DNA from: a virus
Reading direction: 5' to 3' (one strand)
Length of the DNA: 64,000 nt
IMG/VR virus record: IMGVR_UViG_3300021420_000001
Location: 47,481-111,480 of that record
Part shown: piece after piece, positions 8,776-61,916 of the stretch
Layout of the letters: the number at the start of each line of letters is the position of its first letter
Position numbering within the stretch: the stretch's first letter is position 1
Program-made: the position numbers and the translations under genes
Notes under the pieces: generated by a model
The model's input: the letters and a program-made list of their open reading frames with translations, nothing else
Told to the model about the DNA's origin: nothing
Databases searched by the model: none

Positions 8776-9044
8776 TGAGAATTTGCCGCCGTCCAGGCTT
8801 TCATATTCTCCATTCCTTGAGGGCTAATAAGCAGTTGACCCCGCGTTGATCCGTCCGGATAAGACGCTCGGGTAAGCCAACGAACCTCTTCCGTACCAAC
8901 GATACCTAAGAACTTTTCCATAGCGTCAGGTGTCATTCGGGGAAGGTCTCGGTAGACCCAACCGTCAGCCCGTAAAGTTTCGCCAGGGAACGGTTCACCT
9001 TCAGGTAGAGGCCAACTATCCATCCAATCTTTCAGTGCACTCAT
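8772..9044 (-). CDS. hypothetical protein
   Basis: ORF with ATGA-type overlaps on both sides. Confidence 0.55.
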   Translation of the reverse strand: MSALKDWMDSWPLPEGEPFPGETLRADGWVYRDLPRMTPDAMEKFLGIVGTEEVRWLTRASYPDGSTRGQLLISPQGMENMKAWTAANSQ

Positions 9045-9622
9045 GCCGGGAACACAAAGCAGAAGCCACGCTTGGAACCACTCACCGCCTTAGCATACTC
9101 GATGCGGTAGGTCGGGCTCCACTTGAGCAATTCAGGACGGATGAAGGCTTCGTTCATCTCGTGATAAACGCCATTCACGATCATGTGGTCCCAACCGAAG
9201 TCGTTCTCGTGGCCGGGGACCTGGAAATCATGGAAGACGAGGATGCCTTTGCCAGGAGTAATTGCACGGATTTCATCCAGGGTCGGGCATTCACCGTCCC
9301 AGTGCGCATCGATGAAGAAGATCGTATTACTTGGAAGATCGTACATAATGGAAGTAAGCACTTCCGGGGAATGCCCCGTCAAGAATTTGAAGTTGGGCAT
9401 ACCAGCCAAGGCTAGACGCTGATTGGCAACCTCGACGCACTTAGGGTCGTGATCAATCCCAATGTAGTTCGGCACCATCTTGGAAAATGCGAGAGAAGAT
9501 TGACCATCGTTCAGGCCGGTTTCTACGACGGTGTCAATGGCATGCTCCGCAATGATCTCTGCCAAGCGATCCCGCAGGTTGAAATCGTCAAGTGCGTAAT
9601 TCGGACCGGGCCAGTAACCCAT
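9041..9622 (-). CDS. class I SAM-dependent methyltransferase
   Basis: VVETGLNDGQS, GHSPEVL, FFIDAHW, LVFHDF. Confidence 0.8.
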   Translation of the reverse strand: MGYWPGPNYALDDFNLRDRLAEIIAEHAIDTVVETGLNDGQSSLAFSKMVPNYIGIDHDPKCVEVANQRLALAGMPNFKFLTGHSPEVLTSIMYDLPSNTIFFIDAHWDGECPTLDEIRAITPGKGILVFHDFQVPGHENDFGWDHMIVNGVYHEMNEAFIRPELLKWSPTYRIEYAKAVSGSKRGFCFVFPA

Positions 9623-9729
9623 AATAATTTACCACTGATGTCCGCACTTGGCACAATATCCGTGGGCCTTTGTACCTGGAGCTCGGGCATGCCGAAAGTG
9701 AAATCTTCTATGAAACAACCAACACCACA

Positions 9730-10629
9730 TTACGATCGCCCCAAAGCCTTTGTCAGTACCCGCTGCCAGAATAAAAGCGGGTGGTGCCGCGTGAACACCT
9801 TACAATGGAACCTAGCCGCCATCTGCCGTAAATGATCATCGTCCGTGATTTCGACAATCTGAGCAGCTTCCTCGGCGTTATCGAACTCCAAATAGTCAAC
9901 GCCAGGCTCGAACCAGTTCTTGGTCGGGGAACCGCGCTTCTCCAAAAGGACTGAACCTGCAAAGCCGGTCTCCACAACCCGACCCTTGACATGCATACTC
10001 TGAGTCGAACCCGTGATCCCGTAATTGTACGTGATCTTGGTATTACACATGATCGCACCCATCTCATCGTAGGTACGACCAATAGGACCTTGCCGAAAGT
10101 CAATAAGACCCTTCTGTTGGAGAGCCTCGGTCGTGGCCTTACGCTCTGAGTGGCCTAAGCCACCAACCATACCGAGCTTGATTGTCTTCTGCTCCCAAGG
10201 GACGGGCTTGAAGGAGCGCCAATCAATCGGCGTCAGCTCCAGCATCCCATTCTCGAAGCGGTCAATGGGTGTTCCAGGAGCGCCATCGATACTTACCTGG
10301 ACCGTGAAGCACTTTTCCTTTTCGTAGACTTCTAGCATCGGCCACCAAGGCGGGTCTCCGGCGTCGTCACACATGTGCACCATTGGTGCCACAGAGTTGA
10401 GGGCACGAAGAACGTCTGGCTGGGGCACGGGACGACCATGATATTGTTCGATGGCCCCGATAAATAGAATGAAATCCGGACGCCAAGATCTAGCGGTATC
10501 CACGAGTTCGTGGTGCTGTTCATGCGGGCGGTTGTCATATTGCTGCGTGAAGACTTCGTGTCCGATAGACTGAAGGGAACGGTATTTATTTTCGCAGTCC
10601 GTGTAAGTTATCAGGCACAAAACTCTCAT
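9730..10629 (-). CDS. glycosyltransferase (CgeB/Glyco_trans_1_2-like), paralog B
   Basis: HVKGRVVETGFAGS..LE...WFEPGVDYLEF; aligns end to end with 7879-8775. Confidence 0.8.
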   Translation of the reverse strand: MRVLCLITYTDCENKYRSLQSIGHEVFTQQYDNRPHEQHHELVDTARSWRPDFILFIGAIEQYHGRPVPQPDVLRALNSVAPMVHMCDDAGDPPWWPMLEVYEKEKCFTVQVSIDGAPGTPIDRFENGMLELTPIDWRSFKPVPWEQKTIKLGMVGGLGHSERKATTEALQQKGLIDFRQGPIGRTYDEMGAIMCNTKITYNYGITGSTQSMHVKGRVVETGFAGSVLLEKRGSPTKNWFEPGVDYLEFDNAEEAAQIVEITDDDHLRQMAARFHCKVFTRHHPLLFWQRVLTKALGRS

Positions 10630-54871: not shown

Positions 54872-54872
54872 T

Positions 54873-55027
54873 ACAGTGGACGTCCAGATTTGGAGCTAAC
54901 CACAAAGACGGGGGCCGACCTTCTCAAGGCTGTGATCGAGGGGACGGTCGATACCCAGATCAGGCAATTCCACGTAGAGGGTTCGGACCTCCTCCAGGCA
55001 ATCATCAACGGGACAGCCCCAATTTGA
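54873..55027 (+). pseudogene. two relic copies of the SNF2 helicase 3' end
   Basis: TVDVQIWS/NHKDG/ADLLKAVIEG (frameshifted) and TVDTQIRQFHVEGSDLLQAIINGTAPI* versus helicase TVDQQIRDMHAEGKSLLEAIVNGVIIPK*. Confidence 0.8.
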
Positions 55028-55322
55028 GCCCTCTGGGAACCCGCAGAAAGGGTCGTGGACGCGTTCCTTGCCCCTGGACCCTATCTGGGTAGCCCTCTGC
55101 CCCGAAAACGCGTCCTGGACCGTCCCCTGGACTCCCATAAGCATTGCTTATGCCCCATAAACCCAGGAAAAGCTACGTTTCCGGGGCTTTACCTATGTAT
55201 AAAAAGGAGTTGTTCCGGGAACGGGAAAGGTCCATATTACGTATAGGATCTGAGTTGGGAATGGGACAGCGCCACCGATATTAGGGGCCAGAGCCCGAGC
55301 GAGAAAAGTCGCGAACCTGAAC

Positions 55323-55350
55323 TTGACCTGTCTCTCAAAATGGGCATCCT
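55323..55350 (+). promoter_or_regulatory. candidate early promoter TTGACC-N16-CATCCT
   Basis: CTTGAC -35 of alphaproteobacterial type just upstream of the structured leader; -10 weak. Confidence 0.35.
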
Positions 55351-55632
55351 GGAACGCGGCGAGATCAATTTTCATTGACACCGCGCGACCGACTCGACCA
55401 ACCGCCATGCATTTTGCGAATGCCCTTCGCGGCCGTAGTAGCAACTCAATGCAGACGGTGTCAGAAAATTGACGACCTCATCCCTACCACTTTCGAGCAT
55501 CGAAACATGACAGTAGCCTTGGTCGGCGAAAATGCCTGACCTGTTGTGCTCATGCCTCGGTTCCTCGTCACGCAGCTTCAGTGCCGAACCGAGCTTCACG
55601 CAAACCCCGAGATCGCTAGTGGCGGATGTTGT

Positions 55633-55734
55633 ATCTCTCTCTTCTCCTAAAACAGAAAGTGGTCCGCAGTGATGCGCGCCACTCGTTGCACTTGAGCAAT
55701 GCAACCTGATGACGAGCTCACATAGGAGAGAGAT
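55633..55734 (+). ncRNA. type II hammerhead ribozyme candidate with RBS-sequestering flank
   Basis: GAAA 55655-58, stem III with GUGA loop, CUC cleavage triplet ending 55684, stem I GUUGCA/UGCAAC, CUGAUGA 55706-12, loop-I UGAGC pairing GCUCA 55716-20; stem II closing pair is A-C rather than canonical. Confidence 0.7.
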
Positions 55735-55735
55735 C

Positions 55736-55954
55736 ATGGCTAAGGCCTTTGAAGTTCAGAAGTCCAACTATGATGCAGCCCGGCCGTTTGCGGTAGTCGC
55801 AACGTTCCGTAGCTTCAACAAGATCATGGGACGATACGCAGATGAAGCCTCCGCCAAGCGTCGGGCGCGCGTTCTCAACAAACGCAACGCCGATTTGGAT
55901 TATCTCAGCGAACGCCGGACGGTGGTTTTCGCGCTGCCGGAAGTCAATTACTGA
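55736..55954 (+). CDS. early small protein
   Basis: CATAGGAGAGAGA RBS. Confidence 0.75.
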   Translation: MAKAFEVQKSNYDAARPFAVVATFRSFNKIMGRYADEASAKRRARVLNKRNADLDYLSERRTVVFALPEVNY

Positions 55955-55955
55955 G

Positions 55956-56135
55956 ATGGCTAATTGTTGTGATTGTGGGGTTCGGCTTAGCGGCTGGACC
56001 CCACCTCCGCCATTCCGGCCCTTGTGCATGGATTGCGGAAACCGGATGCTGGCTCAAAAATATCTCGCACATCGTTGCGAGCCTGAGCCTGAAGCTAAAC
56101 CTGAGCCGGAGGTTGACGATCGTTATATTTTCTGA
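55956..56135 (+). CDS. early small Cys-rich protein
   Basis: CCDCG...CMDC; ATG follows the previous stop. Confidence 0.5.
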   Translation: MANCCDCGVRLSGWTPPPPFRPLCMDCGNRMLAQKYLAHRCEPEPEAKPEPEVDDRYIF

Positions 56136-56201
56136 ACGCAGCTAGGAAGGTTCTTCGGAACCTTCTCAGGGTGCGTTTATGCACTACATAGGAGAGAGAA
56201 C
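56135..56201 (+). repeat. structured intergenic element E1 + RBS
   Basis: AACGCAGC-TAG-GAAGGTTC(TTCG)GAACCTTC-TCA-GGGTGCGTT; alternative hairpin GTGCG/TGCAC; CATAGGAGAGAGAA. Confidence 0.8.
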
Positions 56202-56396
56202 ATGGACAAACAAACTATGGAAGAGTTTGCAATAGCCGCTGCTCACGGTATAAACGAATTTTTACAATCAATCCGAGGGGCACGAACCCACGCCGACGTG
56301 GTTGTGGAAACGCAACCCGCTATCAGGTTAATAATCAAGTTACCTGATGATACATATTTGGAAATGCCCATCAACGGGCCCCATCATACCTTGTAG
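56202..56396 (+). CDS. early small protein
   Basis: follows E1 RBS. Confidence 0.75.
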   Translation: MDKQTMEEFAIAAAHGINEFLQSIRGARTHADVVVETQPAIRLIIKLPDDTYLEMPINGPHHTL

Positions 56397-56397
56397 T

Positions 56398-56468
56398 GGT
56401 ATCGAAGCAGGCATTTTCGGATGCCTGTCACGATGCCCTTCTTAAGGGTGTCTACATAGGAGAGAGAA
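56398..56468 (+). repeat. structured intergenic element E2 + RBS
   Basis: GGTATCG-AAG-CAGGCATT(TTCG)GATGCCTG-TCA-CGATGCC; alternative hairpin GATGCCCT/AGGGTGTC. Confidence 0.85.
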
Positions 56469-56924
56469 ATGACTGATGACAATACGTCACCATTTGTTCC
56501 TGGTGCGCGCGTTGCAATCCAGAGTAAATACACGACTCACGGCTACACCGAAGGGTTCGTGGACAAGGTCCACAAGCCGCGCGGTAAATACTCCGACTAC
56601 GGGAACATCACGCTGAAGGGTTCTGCCCAACAATACCGGGTCAGCCGTTCGCGGGGTTTCGGGGATGACGTTGGCATGCGTTGGGGTGCATCCTCGACCG
56701 GGGATGAATGGCGGCACACCTTCATCTATCCCTGGGATGCGAAAATTGAAAAGGAGATCGCCGAACAGCGCGAGTCCAATAAGCGCCAACGTCGGATCAA
56801 CCGATTGGAGCAAGCCGTCAAGGCCATGCACCGCGACAACAAACTGCTCGATGGATTCCTCGATACGATCGAAGAGTTCGAGTTGTACGACCAACTCGCG
56901 CCTGTCGAGACGAAGGTTGCGTAA
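56469..56924 (+). CDS. early hypothetical protein
   Basis: follows E2 RBS. Confidence 0.8.
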   Translation: MTDDNTSPFVPGARVAIQSKYTTHGYTEGFVDKVHKPRGKYSDYGNITLKGSAQQYRVSRSRGFGDDVGMRWGASSTGDEWRHTFIYPWDAKIEKEIAEQRESNKRQRRINRLEQAVKAMHRDNKLLDGFLDTIEEFELYDQLAPVETKVA

Positions 56925-56928
56925 ACTG

Positions 56929-57000
56929 ATCCAGCGCAGAGGGCTTCACGGAGCCCTCGACGGTGGATGGTTTTTGTTCACCAAAACATAGGAGAGAGAA
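56929..57000 (+). repeat. structured intergenic element E3 + RBS
   Basis: ATCCAGCG-CAG-AGGGCTT(CACG)GAGCCCT-CGA-CGGTGGAT; alternative hairpin GGTGGATG/TGTTCACC. Confidence 0.8.
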
Positions 57001-57990
57001 ATGACAGACGCAGTTGAAACGATGGCGTTCGCAGGAACTACGCCATGGCATGGTAAGGGGTTCCCAGTCAACAGCAATATGACGCCCCAAGAGATGCTGG
57101 TGGCGAGTAAGACCAATTGGACCGTATCCAAGAAGCCGATCTACTTCGAAAAGGCCGGCAAGATGGAGATCGTGCCCGATCGGTTCGCTCTCATCCGCGA
57201 TTCGGATGAGTCCTGCCTGTCGCTCGTCGGCAGCAAATGGAAAGTCAACCAGAACGAAAAGACGTTCGACTTCTTCTCCAAATACGTCAAGGAAGGCAAG
57301 ATGGGGATGGAGACGGCGGGTTCGCTCTGGTCCGGCCGATACGTCTGGGCGCTCGCGCGGCTCGGTTCCGATTTCGCAATCGGAAAGGACGAGGTCCGCG
57401 GTTACGTCTTATTGGCATCCCCGCACGTCTTTGGGCGGTCGATGCTGATCCAGACCACCGCGATCCGGGTCGTATGTTGGAATACGTTCTCGGCCGCTGT
57501 CGGTTCCAATCTGAAGGGCAAGGGCGGTAACGTGTTCCGCATCCCACATTCCCAGGAGTTCAATGATACGGCCAAGGCAGCCGCCGCATTGACCCTGGGT
57601 CTGGCAACCGAGCAGATGGTCGAGTTCAAGGAGGTCGCGACGTTGCTTTCCAGGAAGAAGGCGACGGCTCCCAAGACCGAGGAGTTCTTCTGCGAGGTCC
57701 TCAAGTTCGATCCCAAGGACGCCGTCAAGAAGAAGGATGGTGAGGACAAGGAGCCCCGCATGTTGTCCAAGTTCCGGGCGGCCCTGACCCATGCTCCGGG
57801 CCAGGAAATGCCCTCGGCTTTGGGCACGTGGTGGGGCAATTTCAATGCGATTACGCACGTGATCGATCATGAGGTCGGCCGCGATCGTGACACCGCGTTG
57901 AAGGCGGCCTGGGTCGGTGGTCACGCCAACCTGAAGCGTGATGCCCTGAAGCTCGCAATCGACTACGCGACCAAGAGTAAGGCGGCGTGA
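57001..57990 (+). CDS. DUF932/DUF945-family protein
   Basis: VETMAFAG.TPWHG.G, METAGSL..GR.VWALA, IRVVCWNT, GTWWG.FNA.T...DH. Confidence 0.88.
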   Translation: MTDAVETMAFAGTTPWHGKGFPVNSNMTPQEMLVASKTNWTVSKKPIYFEKAGKMEIVPDRFALIRDSDESCLSLVGSKWKVNQNEKTFDFFSKYVKEGKMGMETAGSLWSGRYVWALARLGSDFAIGKDEVRGYVLLASPHVFGRSMLIQTTAIRVVCWNTFSAAVGSNLKGKGGNVFRIPHSQEFNDTAKAAAALTLGLATEQMVEFKEVATLLSRKKATAPKTEEFFCEVLKFDPKDAVKKKDGEDKEPRMLSKFRAALTHAPGQEMPSALGTWWGNFNAITHVIDHEVGRDRDTALKAAWVGGHANLKRDALKLAIDYATKSKAA

Positions 57991-58077
57991 TATGAACCGC
58001 TTTATGATCTCGGTCGAGTTGGTGCTGTTCTGGGCTTCGACCATAATGATCGGAGCCATTCTTTTTCTACGCTAAGT

Positions 58078-58151
58078 CACAAGCACAGCAGGCATCTAAG
58101 TCGGTGCCTGTCATGGTTGTGTACTTGCAACCAAAACATAGGAGAGAGAAA
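58078..58151 (+). repeat. structured intergenic element E4 + RBS
   Basis: CACAAGCA-CAG-CAGGCATC(TAAGTC)GGTGCCTG-TCA-TGGTTGTG; alternative hairpin GGTTGT/GCAACC. Confidence 0.85.
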
Positions 58152-58370
58152 ATGCAGTACTATACGTTTTCAGGACCGGCCGACATGAAGTTCGGAAAGA
58201 CGTCGGTCAAGGCGGAAACCGAGAAGGATGCCCGACACCTCGCCATGGTCGCGCGATGGGGGCGTCCCAACGGAAAGCCCCATCCCGGCGATACCGGCCC
58301 AGACGGGCGGTATCTGAGTCACGGGCTCGAGTTGCTCGATATCAGCGACAAACCTCCGGTGGAGGAATAG
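58152..58370 (+). CDS. early small protein
   Basis: follows E4 RBS. Confidence 0.75.
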   Translation: MQYYTFSGPADMKFGKTSVKAETEKDARHLAMVARWGRPNGKPHPGDTGPDGRYLSHGLELLDISDKPPVEE

Positions 58371-58537
58371 ATGCTATACGAGATCAAGGTCTACGAGTCC
58401 TGGGTCAAGGTCAGTGAATGGATTTTCCGTTCCTGGGGCGGACCGCGACGTCTAAATGGTAAACGCTATCGCGGTCCGGTCTACTACCTTGGAACGGAGA
58501 ACTTCACCAAGAAACCTCCAGCGCCGAGTGTGCGCCG

Positions 58538-58930
58538 ATGAGCACCAAATACCGACCCGGGTCCCGGGTCCAACAGGTGTGGGAGGTCTACGAGAAGGAG
58601 GGTGCCGACGGTGCCACAGCCTTTGGAAAAGGGCTTGGGCTCGCCGATGGCACCCTCAAGGGTTGGATGCGGATGTGGTCGACAGGGATTGACAAGAAGG
58701 CGAAAATGCCTTCTCCGCCCATCTCTACCAAGCCTCCGACCAAGGTGATCCGGACGTCCCGATCCATGCTCGGAAAGGAACGTATCCGGGTCATCGGGAT
58801 TGAAGGTGAGGCCTACCTGATCGCACAGGGGCCTGACCAAAGTGAGATTCGTTGGGTGCATAATGGCAACCAGGTTGTCATACCCAACGATTGGATCGAG
58901 GCAGAGTCCAGCGAAGTGCCCTCCGCGTAG
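58538..58930 (+). CDS. early hypothetical protein
   Basis: co-oriented ORF whose stop lies inside E5. Confidence 0.6.
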   Translation: MSTKYRPGSRVQQVWEVYEKEGADGATAFGKGLGLADGTLKGWMRMWSTGIDKKAKMPSPPISTKPPTKVIRTSRSMLGKERIRVIGIEGEAYLIAQGPDQSEIRWVHNGNQVVIPNDWIEAESSEVPSA

Positions 58931-58972
58931 GAGGGCATCACGCTGCACTTACGCAGCATAGGAGAGAGAACC
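58909..58972 (+). repeat. structured intergenic element E5 + RBS
   Basis: CAGCG-AAG-TGCCCTCC(GCGTA)GGAGGGCA-TCA-CGCTG; alternative hairpin GCTGC/GCAGC. Confidence 0.85.
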
Positions 58973-59317
58973 ATGAACGGACTAGGTATCAATCCCAAGC
59001 ATGTTTGGATTATGCACAACCAAGTCGAGCGTTGTCTGCTCTGTGGAAACACAGCGGCAACTCTTGATCACGTCAAGTTCGTCCGGGAACAGAACGCTCT
59101 GCAACCCCAACGCGAGGCCCTTTTCGCATTGGTCCGCGACCCGGATGATTGGAAGGCGCCGATCGAAGCCTTCATCAAATACGCGTGGAACATCCCCGTC
59201 GAAGACATGGATGATGCTATCGTCCATTTCACCGGCGTGGAAAATACGATCGTCCACGATACCTTCGGATATACGATCAAGTCCGTCGGTTATCGCAACG
59301 GTCCGTGTGGTCCCTAA
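58973..59317 (+). CDS. early hypothetical protein
   Basis: follows E5 RBS; DWKAPI...AIVHFTG...GY..GP. Confidence 0.75.
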   Translation: MNGLGINPKHVWIMHNQVERCLLCGNTAATLDHVKFVREQNALQPQREALFALVRDPDDWKAPIEAFIKYAWNIPVEDMDDAIVHFTGVENTIVHDTFGYTIKSVGYRNGPCGP

Positions 59318-59323
59318 GTCCCT

Positions 59324-59392
59324 ACCGGCCGGGCGGCTCCTTCGGGAGCCGTCTCCCGGTGCGGATTGACCGTACCAACATAGGAGAGAGAA
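59324..59392 (+). repeat. structured intergenic element E6 (variant) + RBS
   Basis: ACCGG-CCG-GGCGGCTCC(TTCG)GGAGCCGTC-TC-CCGGT; alternative hairpin GGTGCGG/CCGTACC. Confidence 0.7.
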
Positions 59393-59602
59393 ATGGCTAA
59401 AGCATCTTTGGGACAGCGTCGCGCTCTTCGACTCGTCGACGAGAACCAAGCCTGTCTGAACGAGCGAATCTACCGCCATGGCGTGGACGATCCGAACAAG
59501 CTCAGGCTCGAGTTGGAAGGGCTCCGCAATGCCTGGTTGCATTCGGGGGCCTTGCCCTACACGGAGAACCTGACCATCGTCGACGTCGAAGCGACGCGGT
59601 GA
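59393..59602 (+). CDS. early small protein
   Basis: follows E6 RBS. Confidence 0.7.
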   Translation: MAKASLGQRRALRLVDENQACLNERIYRHGVDDPNKLRLELEGLRNAWLHSGALPYTENLTIVDVEATR

Positions 59603-59790
59603 TTGACGTGATCAGGAAAACGAAAAAGCCCGGCGGGCCCGTCCGATATGATGTCGTTCTTTACGACATCGACCAGAACGGAACTACGATGACCTGGTAT
59701 GTATACTCGGAGGAAGGGGCACAAAGACATGCCACCGACCTCCGCGTACAGCACCCCGGAAAGAAGGTCGAAATTCGGGTCGGAGCATAG
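59599..59790 (+). CDS. early small protein
   Basis: GTGA overlap with the previous stop. Confidence 0.55.
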   Translation: MIDVIRKTKKPGGPVRYDVVLYDIDQNGTTMTWYVYSEEGAQRHATDLRVQHPGKKVEIRVGA

Positions 59791-59866
59791 AGTTCAGCGC
59801 AGCAGGCATCTCAGACGGTGCCTGTCACGCTGTACTACTTACGTATGGCAAACATAGGAGAGAGAA
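59791..59866 (+). repeat. structured intergenic element E7 + RBS
   Basis: CAGCG-CAG-CAGGCATC(TCAGAC)GGTGCCTG-TCA-CGCTG; alternative hairpin GCTGTAC/GTATGGC. Confidence 0.85.
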
Positions 59867-60172
59867 ATGAGTTTCAAGAACATTCGCAATATCGGGCGTC
59901 CATGGCAGTTCAAATTCGCTATGCGCGATCTACTGAACGATGATACGTCGAGCGAGAATGCTCGACGGGTAGCGGAAGCACTTGCTGCTCGCATCAAAAG
60001 CTTTCTGAAACAAACCAATCTACTGGAACCGGCTGCAGCCAAACAAGGTCGGCTTCTTGCAGAACGGTTGGATCGTGCTGCCAAGAATACGGACTACGAC
60101 GTGGACTACTTCAACCATGATCTCGATGTGTTCTGGGATTGGGCAGACGATGCCCGCATCCTAGTTGAATAA
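59867..60172 (+). CDS. early hypothetical protein
   Basis: follows E7 RBS; F...LD.FWDWAD..RI.V. Confidence 0.75.
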   Translation: MSFKNIRNIGRPWQFKFAMRDLLNDDTSSENARRVAEALAARIKSFLKQTNLLEPAAAKQGRLLAERLDRAAKNTDYDVDYFNHDLDVFWDWADDARILVE

Positions 60173-60211
60173 AAGTTCGTAGCGAAGGCAGGCTTTGCGG
60201 AGCCTGCTCAC

Positions 60212-60822
60212 TTCTTAAATAAATCTTCCATCTGTACTTCGAGTCCGCGCTTTAGCATATATAGAATGTTTAAACCTCCTTTCCGTAGTTTGTTTCCGAG
60301 GTTGGATTTTATTTCCTAACATAAGTCTTCGCAATTCTGCCCGACGTTCTGGAGAGCACTTTCTTTCTCGATCATTCTCCAACTTAGTTATAATTCGAAC
60401 ATTTCCGACAGCGTAGGGACCTTTATCACCAAAGCGGGCCATGCAATATTGATCTGCGCGTTTACCACGTTCTTCCCAATGCCCCGAGTCCTGCCAAATC
60501 TTCCACCATTCTTCAAATGTAAACAAAAAAGGAATTTTCCGCCCTCTGGCTGAGCCGATATGTTCACAAAACTTTTGATAAGGTATTGTGGGGTAATTAT
60601 GCTTTGGTGGTTTTGGTTTTCGTGGTTTACGCGGCGATTTAGATCGTTTACGAGTTCCGCTAGCCCAGCTATCTAAAGCAGCCAAACGTATGTTTTCGCA
60701 ATGTTCTGGAGTTCGCGGTTTGCGCTTGTAGATACCACGCGGCATGTTGCTTCTCCCAAAGGTTCTCTGACGATCGGGGAACCCTTGGGAGGAACACCCG
60801 ATCGTCAGGACAACTGCCCGGA
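60212..60822 (-). mobile_element. free-standing endonuclease cassette inserted in E8
   Basis: AT-rich, opposite-strand gene with its own structured leader; boundaries inferred from restoring the E8 stem. Confidence 0.55.
60215..60745 (-). CDS. His-Me finger (HNH-like) endonuclease with NUMOD3-like basic motifs
   Basis: F.FTFEEWW..W..SGHW..RG.....YCMARFGDKGPY.VGNV.I....EN. Confidence 0.75.
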   Translation of the reverse strand: MPRGIYKRKPRTPEHCENIRLAALDSWASGTRKRSKSPRKPRKPKPPKHNYPTIPYQKFCEHIGSARGRKIPFLFTFEEWWKIWQDSGHWEERGKRADQYCMARFGDKGPYAVGNVRIITKLENDRERKCSPERRAELRRLMLGNKIQPRKQTTERRFKHSIYAKARTRSTDGRFI

Positions 60823-60890
60823 GCTACCGAGCGGTTGCTATCCTAAAGGGTTTTCCTCAAAACTGCAAATTTACAACATAGGAGAGAGAA

Positions 60891-61646
60891 ATGAACGATT
60901 CACTGAAGGAAAAATTGATCGAGAAGATTCGCAAGTTGCTTGCGCTTGCGGGTTCATCGAACGAGCATGAAGCGGCTCTGGCCGCCGAAAAGGCTCAAGC
61001 CATGCTTGCCGAGTATAATCTTTCGCTCGCCGACATCGATGACGACAAAGAGTCGGACGACTTCGTCATCGACAAAGAGTTGGAAAATGATTCGTTCCCA
61101 TGGAAGCGCCAGGTCGCCGTCATGGTCGCGAAACTCTACTTCTGCACCTACTTCTTTACGCAGTTCAAGCGTTTCGTCAACCAGCGCATCGTCCGACTCG
61201 ATCGTCATAATTTCGTTGGTGCGCAACACAACATCGCCGTGACCAAGGCGATGTTCGTCTATCTGGTCGCGACGGTGGAACGGTTGGCGCAAGAAGGCGG
61301 TCGGCAGGTTCCGTCCTCCGAACGCGAAGCCTACCGGCGGGCGTTCATGTGGGCCTGTACCCATCGACTCAGTCGGCGCATTGCCGAACGGATCGCGGCG
61401 GCACGTGCCGGCATGGGAATCAAGACCGAATCCGGCAATACGTTGCCCGCACTCGCCAACCTCTACGATCAGGCCGAACAGTCCCTGAAGAACTTTCTGG
61501 ATGGGAATGTCGGCAAGTTGAAGACGGCCAAACGTGGCGGCAAGATCAGTTCCGCGCAGGGTGCCGAAGATGGGCGCGCTGCCGGTGACCGCATCGGCCT
61601 TGACACCCAGTTGACGGGCAAGGCTGCTGCGCATTTGCTGCGTTAA
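60891..61646 (+). CDS. DUF2786-domain protein
   Basis: EKIRKLLALA.SSNEHEA.LA.EKAQAML.EYNL; C-terminal G..DG..AG..I.L. Confidence 0.85.
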   Translation: MNDSLKEKLIEKIRKLLALAGSSNEHEAALAAEKAQAMLAEYNLSLADIDDDKESDDFVIDKELENDSFPWKRQVAVMVAKLYFCTYFFTQFKRFVNQRIVRLDRHNFVGAQHNIAVTKAMFVYLVATVERLAQEGGRQVPSSEREAYRRAFMWACTHRLSRRIAERIAAARAGMGIKTESGNTLPALANLYDQAEQSLKNFLDGNVGKLKTAKRGGKISSAQGAEDGRAAGDRIGLDTQLTGKAAAHLLR

Positions 61647-61658
61647 TAGGAGAGGGAA

Positions 61659-61916
61659 ATGAGCAAAACTACTTTCAACATTCGCGTTGCCGATGGGCCC
61701 GTGCAAAAAATCGAGGTTAAGACGGGTATCTACCGCGATGCAGCGGCAGCTGTGCCTGCGCTCTTAGGCTTAGCACTGCCGATCGTGGTGGAAATTTGGC
61801 ATCCTAAGCTGGTCCCAGAATACGGACCATACCTCTATCGTATCAAAGAGAATGCATTTGGTGGCCTCGTAACTGAGCATTGCATACGCACGCATGGTAC
61901 TGGAGCCCGGAAATGA
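61659..61916 (+). CDS. hypothetical protein
   Basis: RBS variant TAGGAGAGGGAA. Confidence 0.65.
   Translation: MSKTTFNIRVADGPVQKIEVKTGIYRDAAAAVPALLGLALPIVVEIWHPKLVPEYGPYLYRIKENAFGGLVTEHCIRTHGTGARK

Follow-up and report, generated by a model that had tools for sequence, protein, structure and literature searches.

The window analysed here, a stretch of 64,000 nucleotides (64 kb), is the final part of the 111,480-bp IMG/VR virus record IMGVR_UViG_3300021420_000001, which is bounded by 127-bp direct terminal repeats. In this part of the genome a helicase gene and an HNH gene are followed by an 860-nt non-coding stretch, then by an early-gene block (55736–61916) and then by a primase gene. The block consists of small same-strand genes, mostly without annotation, and one RNA element recurs between them at 56133–60214. 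Its structure, its relatives and its possible role in the processing of early transcripts are the subject of this work. An earlier reading of the sequence (the original prediction) had counted eight copies of one architecture, here named E1–E8; seven of them are complete, whereas the eighth (60180–60214) is interrupted.

The element folds into an irregular hairpin

The spacer stretches starting at 56130, 56390, 56918, 58070, 58900, 59312 and 59785 were folded by minimum free energy (MFE). All seven gave the same structure, in which the outer stem P1 leads through a small internal loop to an inner hairpin (P2) of 8–10 bp. Across copies, P1 measures 5–10 bp and P2 8–11 bp, the two forming an irregular helix of about 18–21 pairs, in which a 2×2 internal loop with CA on its 3' strand separates P1 from a P2 closed by a G·U pair. 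The loop had been predicted as NAG/UCA. An internal loop does lie between P1 and P2, but in the MFE structure a G·U wobble forms between the last letter of NAG and the first of UCA, so that the loop proper is 5'-NA/3'-CA and thus 2×2. Deviating loops are found in E3 (CA/GA), E6 (CC/C) and E1 (A/CA). The apical loop of P2 is variable (4–9 nt), and the UUCG cap, said to be frequent, was seen in three of the eight copies. The upstream gene ends with a stop codon 0–6 nt 5' of P1, except in E5, where the stop codon falls inside P2.

All copies are on the plus strand; the bit scores given here are those of R2, the second covariance model, the first having been built from five copies. E1 (56133–56201; 37.0 bits) has P1 at 56133–56143/56169–56179, the loop A/CA, a UUCG-capped P2 at 56145–56166 and, at 56170–56185, the alternative hairpin P3; the ribosome-binding site (RBS) follows at 56187–56200 and the ATG at 56202. 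E2 (56395–56468; 36.9 bits) has P1 at 56398–56404/56431–56437, the loop AA/CA, P2 at 56407–56428 and P3 from 56432, then the RBS and the ATG at 56469. In E3 (56923–57000; 33.4 bits), P1 at 56929–56936/56961–56968 contains a G·G mismatch, the loop CA/GA leads to P2 at 56939–56958, and P3 and the RBS directly precede the ATG at 57001 of a DUF932 gene (57001–57987, 329 aa). E4 (58074–58151; 39.8 bits) likewise has a G·G in P1 (58078–58085/58114–58121), followed by the loop CA/CA, P2 at 58088–58111, P3, the RBS and the ATG at 58152. E5 (58904–58972; 36.2 bits) is made up of P1 at 58909–58913/58941–58945, the loop AA/CA, P2 at 58916–58938 with the stop codon in its loop, P3, the RBS and the ATG at 58973. 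E6 (59323–59392; 28.7 bits) has P1 at 59323–59328/59356–59361, the loop CC/C, a UUCG-capped P2 at 59331–59354 and P3, before the RBS and the ATG at 59393. E7 (59791–59866) scored highest (41.6 bits), with P1 at 59795–59799/59828–59832, the loop CA/CA, P2 at 59802–59825, P3, the RBS and the ATG at 59867.

The interrupted copy E8 (60180–60214; 28.3 bits) retains the P1 5' arm, the loop AA/CA and P2 (60187–60208); it lacks P3 and the P1 3' arm, which is replaced by a reverse-strand open reading frame (ORF) of 176 aa (60215–60745, minus strand) starting at most 6 nt after the UCA of E8. This ORF matches phrog_16521 (unknown function), gave no match in a Pfam search, has a higher AT content than its surroundings, and carries its own RBS. 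It has the look of a mobile cassette inserted into E8, and gene shuffling at element boundaries, as the original prediction had proposed, is plausible. A 12-bp inverted repeat lies near the ORF, at 60768–60809.

An invariant RBS block follows each complete element

In each complete element, P3 is followed by CATAGGAGAGAGA and an ATG. The block ATAGGAGAGAGA occurs in nine identical copies and one variant (at 61646) in the window, where 0.5 would be expected by chance, as had been claimed for the RBS downstream of the elements. All copies are on the plus strand, within 55722–61657 and 1–3 nt upstream of an ATG, and a whole-genome search found none in the remainder of the 111,480-bp genome. The ninth block, CATAGGAGAGAGAA (60877–60890, plus strand), precedes the ATG at 60891 of a DUF2786/DUF7168 gene. 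The variant RBS, TAGGAGAGGGAAATG at 61644–61661, overlaps the stop codon of a 251-aa gene and is without a hairpin element.

Stems covary around a conserved core

The element is also present in three other uncultured phages (L137, L301/G002 and L333). In an alignment of 22 copies from the four phages, standard pairs filled 93.5% of cells, compared with 60.8% after shuffling, and compensatory changes were found in 13 of 14 pairs. None of 500 shuffles reached the observed pairing values, nor did slid registers come close. The base of P2 is G·U in 19 of 22 copies, while the third P1 pair is unpaired in 14 of 22, mostly as a G·G mismatch. Nearly every copy has CA on the 3' side of the loop; on the 5' side the letters vary (CA, AA, CC, GA). 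The expectation of covarying stems around a constant loop held for the stems and for the 3' strand of the loop, but not for its 5' strand. Nor do the copies differ in primary sequence throughout, as had been supposed, since they share the core CAGCR-NA-G[P2]U-CA-YGGUG. E5 and one G002 copy are positional counterparts, standing before homologous genes (70% identity over 76 residues), and between these two a C-G pair of P2 has changed to U-A, a compensatory change.

A covariance model and searches of Rfam and phage DNA had been proposed with the original prediction; the model was built, copies were found in the three further phages, and Rfam gave no match. On the 111-kb genome, R2 matched at the intergenic element sites only, and on about 2.8 Mb of other loci it gave no convincing further match. 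Hand-written descriptors performed less well: a strict one was too narrow (3 of 7 copies found), and a relaxed one gave 13 matches as against 7–17 in shuffles. None of the 4227 covariance models of Rfam 15 reached its gathering score in the window, and no match was found at E ≤ 10 in 55200–61000 (5.8 kb) or on E7 alone (a 96-nt search). As far as these comparisons show, the family and its two-state design are uncatalogued in Rfam and in the literature searched, the ribozyme-associated motif list of Weinberg 2015 having been compared via Rfam only.

Covariation also bears on whether the repeats act as DNA, that is, as sites of recombination or homing through which gene cassettes are shuffled, with the RNA structure incidental. 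The reverse-strand ORF inserted right after the TCA of E8 would fit such sites, as would the gene content between elements, which differs among relatives, and the invariant RBS block, which would supply homology for recombination. However, the conserved G·U pairs, at the base of P2 and elsewhere within it, would be A·C on the other strand; reverse-strand covariance model scores are much lower; and helices that covary without sequence conservation indicate that what is selected is a folded single strand in the mRNA sense. A purely DNA-level role is, in our view, very improbable.

P1 and P3 are alternative folds

P3 is an alternative hairpin that re-uses the 3' arm of P1. In folding, this arm paired with downstream sequence in every copy once the P1 5' arm was made unavailable. 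Across the four phages, the piece that begins with the P1 3' arm formed a 5'-terminal hairpin, starting at its nt 1–3, in 17 of 20 copies, compared with a mean of 3.4 of 20 and a maximum of 8 in 200 shuffled-tail controls. The mutually exclusive P3 of the original prediction is borne out by these counts. The loops of P3, like those of P2, are not conserved. In uncut RNA the P1+P2 state is more stable than the P3 state by 1–13 kcal/mol (1–6 kcal/mol in most copies), and the Shine-Dalgarno sequence is left free in both folds. Kissing between the P2 and P3 loops was considered as a general feature and rejected, being possible in two copies only (E4 and E5).

Two such folds could serve a role without any cutting. 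The element might be an insulator or stabiliser or a two-state switch, or its loop might serve as an operator at which an RNA-binding regulator of the phage turns the early genes off; in a switch, termination of a ribosome at the stop codon would melt P1, P3 would form, and initiation at the next RBS would be tuned. With the stop codon just before P1, or within P2 in E5, terminating ribosomes must open P1; the modest energy difference between the folds in most copies also suits a switch, and the loop sequence is conserved like a protein operator. Against a switch, neither fold covers the Shine-Dalgarno sequence, and the elements that hold the same position in relatives (see below) have cleavage as their sole known activity. 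As for an operator, no protein was found in all four element-bearing phages yet absent from hammerhead-only relatives, among contigs that are partial. An uncut role is possible, if rather unlikely.

Ribozymes and tRNAs occupy the same slot in related phages

Relatives were gathered through an alignment of DUF932 homologues, which gave 80 viral, 80 metagenome and 33 bacterial-genome loci. The DUF932 protein has hundreds of homologues at 40–67% identity, and the gene neighbourhood of these loci is syntenic with the window. Other routes yielded little. No similar DNA was found in the phage DNA collection; RBS-block scans of viral contigs gave single chance matches only; a scan for close protein relatives using the DUF932 protein of the window found none; and a gapped core pattern gave mostly chance matches, L301 being the sole real contig among the matches listed.

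The slot, comprising a stop codon, the element, the RBS and an ATG, is held in relatives by hammerhead II ribozymes, twister-P5 ribozymes or tRNAs. Rfam Hammerhead_II was found in spacers of L133, L135, L136, L139, L143, L332 and L346, with up to 11 per locus. In total, the same search as was applied to the window gave 44 hammerhead II matches in related loci, including the spacer directly upstream of the DUF932 gene, which is the junction occupied by E3. Twister-P5 ribozymes lie in L142 at 9024–9081 and 9707–9765 (55 bits), in spacers after the DUF932 gene. The RBS block AUAGGAGAGAGAC of L143 is common with the window, and each L143 block is preceded by a hammerhead II and, once, also by a tRNA-like element. 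The latter, at about 9860–9950, has a T arm (GGUUCGAGUCC) and an acceptor stem and lies directly 5' of the RBS block; a hammerhead II at 9784–9856 precedes it, giving two processing elements in one spacer.

Three of the four element-bearing phages are represented by fragments. The 19.7-kb contig L137, whose RBS is CUUAGGAG, has at least ten copies of the element, one of them before its DUF932 gene. In L301/G002, where the first covariance model recovered three or four copies, the G002 array has the element at four junctions; hammerhead II takes the two junctions that come next, and the same RBS follows in each case. L333 has a hammerhead-II-like element together with two copies of this element. 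Because element and ribozyme are mixed in one array (G002, L333), they are interchangeable modules. The first element of the G002 array (L423, 4951–4914, minus strand) is a perfect 22-bp hairpin without P3, which retains the 3' strand CCAUGGUG and has a fully complementary 5' strand. The 33 bacterial-genome DUF932 loci contained no copy of the element, and no nuclease gene is common to all element-bearing phages, as judged from partial contigs. Other stable hairpins, neither hammerhead nor this element, stand before DUF932 in L132 (7900–8000) and L146 (7900–8000), which suggests further uncatalogued families in the slot.

Comparison with hammerhead and twister-sister ribozymes

Operon punctuation by RNA processing elements in phages is of a known kind. 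Clusters of hammerhead II that flank genes in phages and prophages have been described (Perreault et al. 2011, PMC3088659), with the proposal that they divide long transcripts into mRNAs of gene length. The present element shares with hammerhead type II (RF02276) its slot, its DUF932 gene neighbourhood and, in two phages, its arrays; the downstream product of the hammerhead starts with a hairpin (stem I), as the 3' piece of the element does (P3). Unlike the hammerhead, E1–E8 lack CUGANGA and the three-way junction and consist of one irregular hairpin with a competing hairpin, and self-cleavage is not expected of them from hammerhead chemistry. We also considered the element as a hammerhead minus its CUGAUGA strand, with CGAAG at the hammerhead-box position and UC after P2. 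CGAAG stands there in just three copies, other copies having CGCAG or CACAG, and the idea was set aside as speculation.

The first array gene is preceded by E0 (55633–55738, plus strand), which has GAAA, stem III, UC, stem I and CUGAUGA, and a pseudoknot between loop I and the 3' tail (UGAGC/GCUCA). E0 has no stem II adjoining the core; at the position where a stem II would be expected next to G12, eight additional nucleotides are present. The sequence flanking E0 on its upstream side, AUCUCUCUC, is complementary to the RBS. A hammerhead had been claimed at this first position, but a 161-nt search of E0 with the Rfam hammerhead models found no match at E ≤ 10, and stem II is missing. E0 is hammerhead-like and possibly decayed.

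The original prediction had also pointed to a likeness to the cleavage loop of twister-sister (RF02681), and at the level of sequence this likeness is correct. Loop L1 of twister-sister consists of G5 C6 A7 A8 G9 and C60 U61 C62^A63 U64, with A7 highly conserved (PMC5660989). The loop of the element reads R-[C/A]-A-G/U-C-A-Y where L1 has G-C-A-A/U-C^A-U, and it too lies between two coaxial stems and includes the U-C-A step at which twister-sister cuts. The element differs in having no three- or four-way junction and no conserved SL4 loop that would organise L1. Its closing pair is G·U and not A-U, the counterpart of A7 varies, and the Rfam model gave no match.

These comparisons frame the reading of the element as a new self-cleaving ribozyme of very small size, perhaps descended from twister-sister. 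Such a ribozyme would cut at C^A on the 3' side of the loop and leave a 5'-OH on a message beginning with P3. This reading has the slot of hammerhead II and twister, and the mixed arrays, in its favour. The loop matches L1 position by position save for the change of A-U to G·U, and includes C^A; both the G·U closure and the UCA strand have been conserved. The logic of ribozyme neighbourhoods had itself led to twister-sister, pistol and hatchet, though many neighbouring motifs failed in cleavage tests (PMC10085705). Against self-cleavage, no Rfam ribozyme model matched E7 even at E ≤ 10; no multi-helix junction or SL4-like partner is present, and neither the apical nor the P3 loop is conserved; the 5' strand of the loop is variable where A7 of twister-sister is highly conserved; and the loop is fully paired in the perfect G002 copy. 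We consider self-cleavage unlikely, and doubt still more its specific form as an unusually small ribozyme class, in which the 2×2 loop would be a stripped-down L1 cut at C^A and release of the P1 3' arm would drive an irreversible change to P3. With variable 5' strand and loops, and without a junction, partner loop or Rfam match, a new self-cleaving motif no longer leads among the explanations.

The elements as proposed processing signals

The element has a conserved structure, two alternative folds, and positional equivalence with ribozymes. Our best reading is that the copies may act as functional stand-ins for the hammerhead and twister ribozymes of the same slots. More specifically, and with a probability that we put at roughly 45%, they may be intercistronic processing and stabilisation signals nicked by an RNase III-type nuclease. 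In a long early transcript, each element would fold into P1, the 2×2 loop and P2. A protein endonuclease, most likely of the host RNase III type, would nick the 3' strand at or near the unpaired U-C-A, and the upstream message would retain P2 as a 3' hairpin. The freed 3' arm of P1 would then refold with downstream sequence into P3, and the downstream message would gain a 5'-terminal hairpin before a strong RBS.

The occurrence, site and agent of cutting we infer from context. The slot, the mixing with ribozymes and the design of P3 argue for cleavage on the 3' side of the loop, and they are likewise what speaks for the predicted cut site and its hairpin-protected mRNAs. A protein nuclease target is preferred over a catalytic core because only the UCA of the 3' strand is constant, the 5' strand being merely unpaired. 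The irregular helix of 18–21 pairs, the variable apical and P3 loops, the perfect 22-bp copy and the precedent of phage T7 favour an RNase III-type agent, and a host nuclease of this type is more likely than self-cleavage.

The early mRNAs of T7 and T3 carry the RNase III signals R0.3–R1.3, of which R1.1 is the model substrate; in T7 early mRNA, each site is an irregular hairpin that contains an internal loop and is nicked on its 3' side. The present elements, too, are irregular hairpins; they span about two helical turns, contain an internal loop and lie between cistrons. They resemble the T7 signals in having a lower and an upper stem on either side of an internal loop, in their position between the cistrons of an early polycistronic RNA, in the likeness of the sites within one phage, and in the 3' hairpin that a 3'-side nick would give the upstream message. 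They differ in a much smaller (2×2) loop, a shorter lower stem, an obligatory P3, and a core conserved across distant phages.

Several observations weigh against an RNase III-type agent. A domain search found that the phage itself encodes no RNase III domain. The helix, with a P1 of 5–8 bp and a P2 of 8–11 bp, is near the lower length limit for the enzyme. The loop, the G·U closure and the G·G mismatch are kept across phages whose shared proteins are about 50% identical, a sequence constraint that exceeds known RNase III needs. Finally, every other slot occupant found in relatives is a ribozyme or a tRNA, never a protein-nuclease site.

Hammerheads have been known since 2011 to punctuate the early transcripts of phages gene by gene, whereas the purpose of this punctuation and its non-ribozyme equivalents have not been described. 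Here, a well-defined, covarying family outside Rfam swaps with hammerhead and twister at the same junctions. If a hairpin cut by a protein can replace a ribozyme, then the selected function would simply be cutting and end protection; if the element is self-cleaving, it is a new minimal ribozyme. In either case, the refolding of P1 into P3 would be a simple natural design that gives each message a protective 5' hairpin.

Promoters, terminators and genome setting

Sigma-70-like promoters and intrinsic terminators were not enriched in the spacers, with the reservation that the consensus may not be the host's. The PeSL cassettes of T4-like phages, to which the elements had been compared, consist of an early promoter and a stem-loop; the spacers have no sigma-70 site under the same reservation. 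A T7-like promoter in ...CATAGGAGAG was rejected, as there is no conservation upstream of CATA and no match to a single-subunit RNA polymerase was found in a search whose controls were also blank.

Among the sequencing runs on record, the stretch is present only in a soil metagenome DNA run, which may be its source, and no run recorded as RNA contains it. Several array junctions are overlapping stop/start pairs, and the elements therefore bracket blocks of one to three genes. The non-coding stretch upstream of the array (54872–55735) may be a regulatory or origin region; CCTGGAC occurs in it three times, inside 55075–55135.

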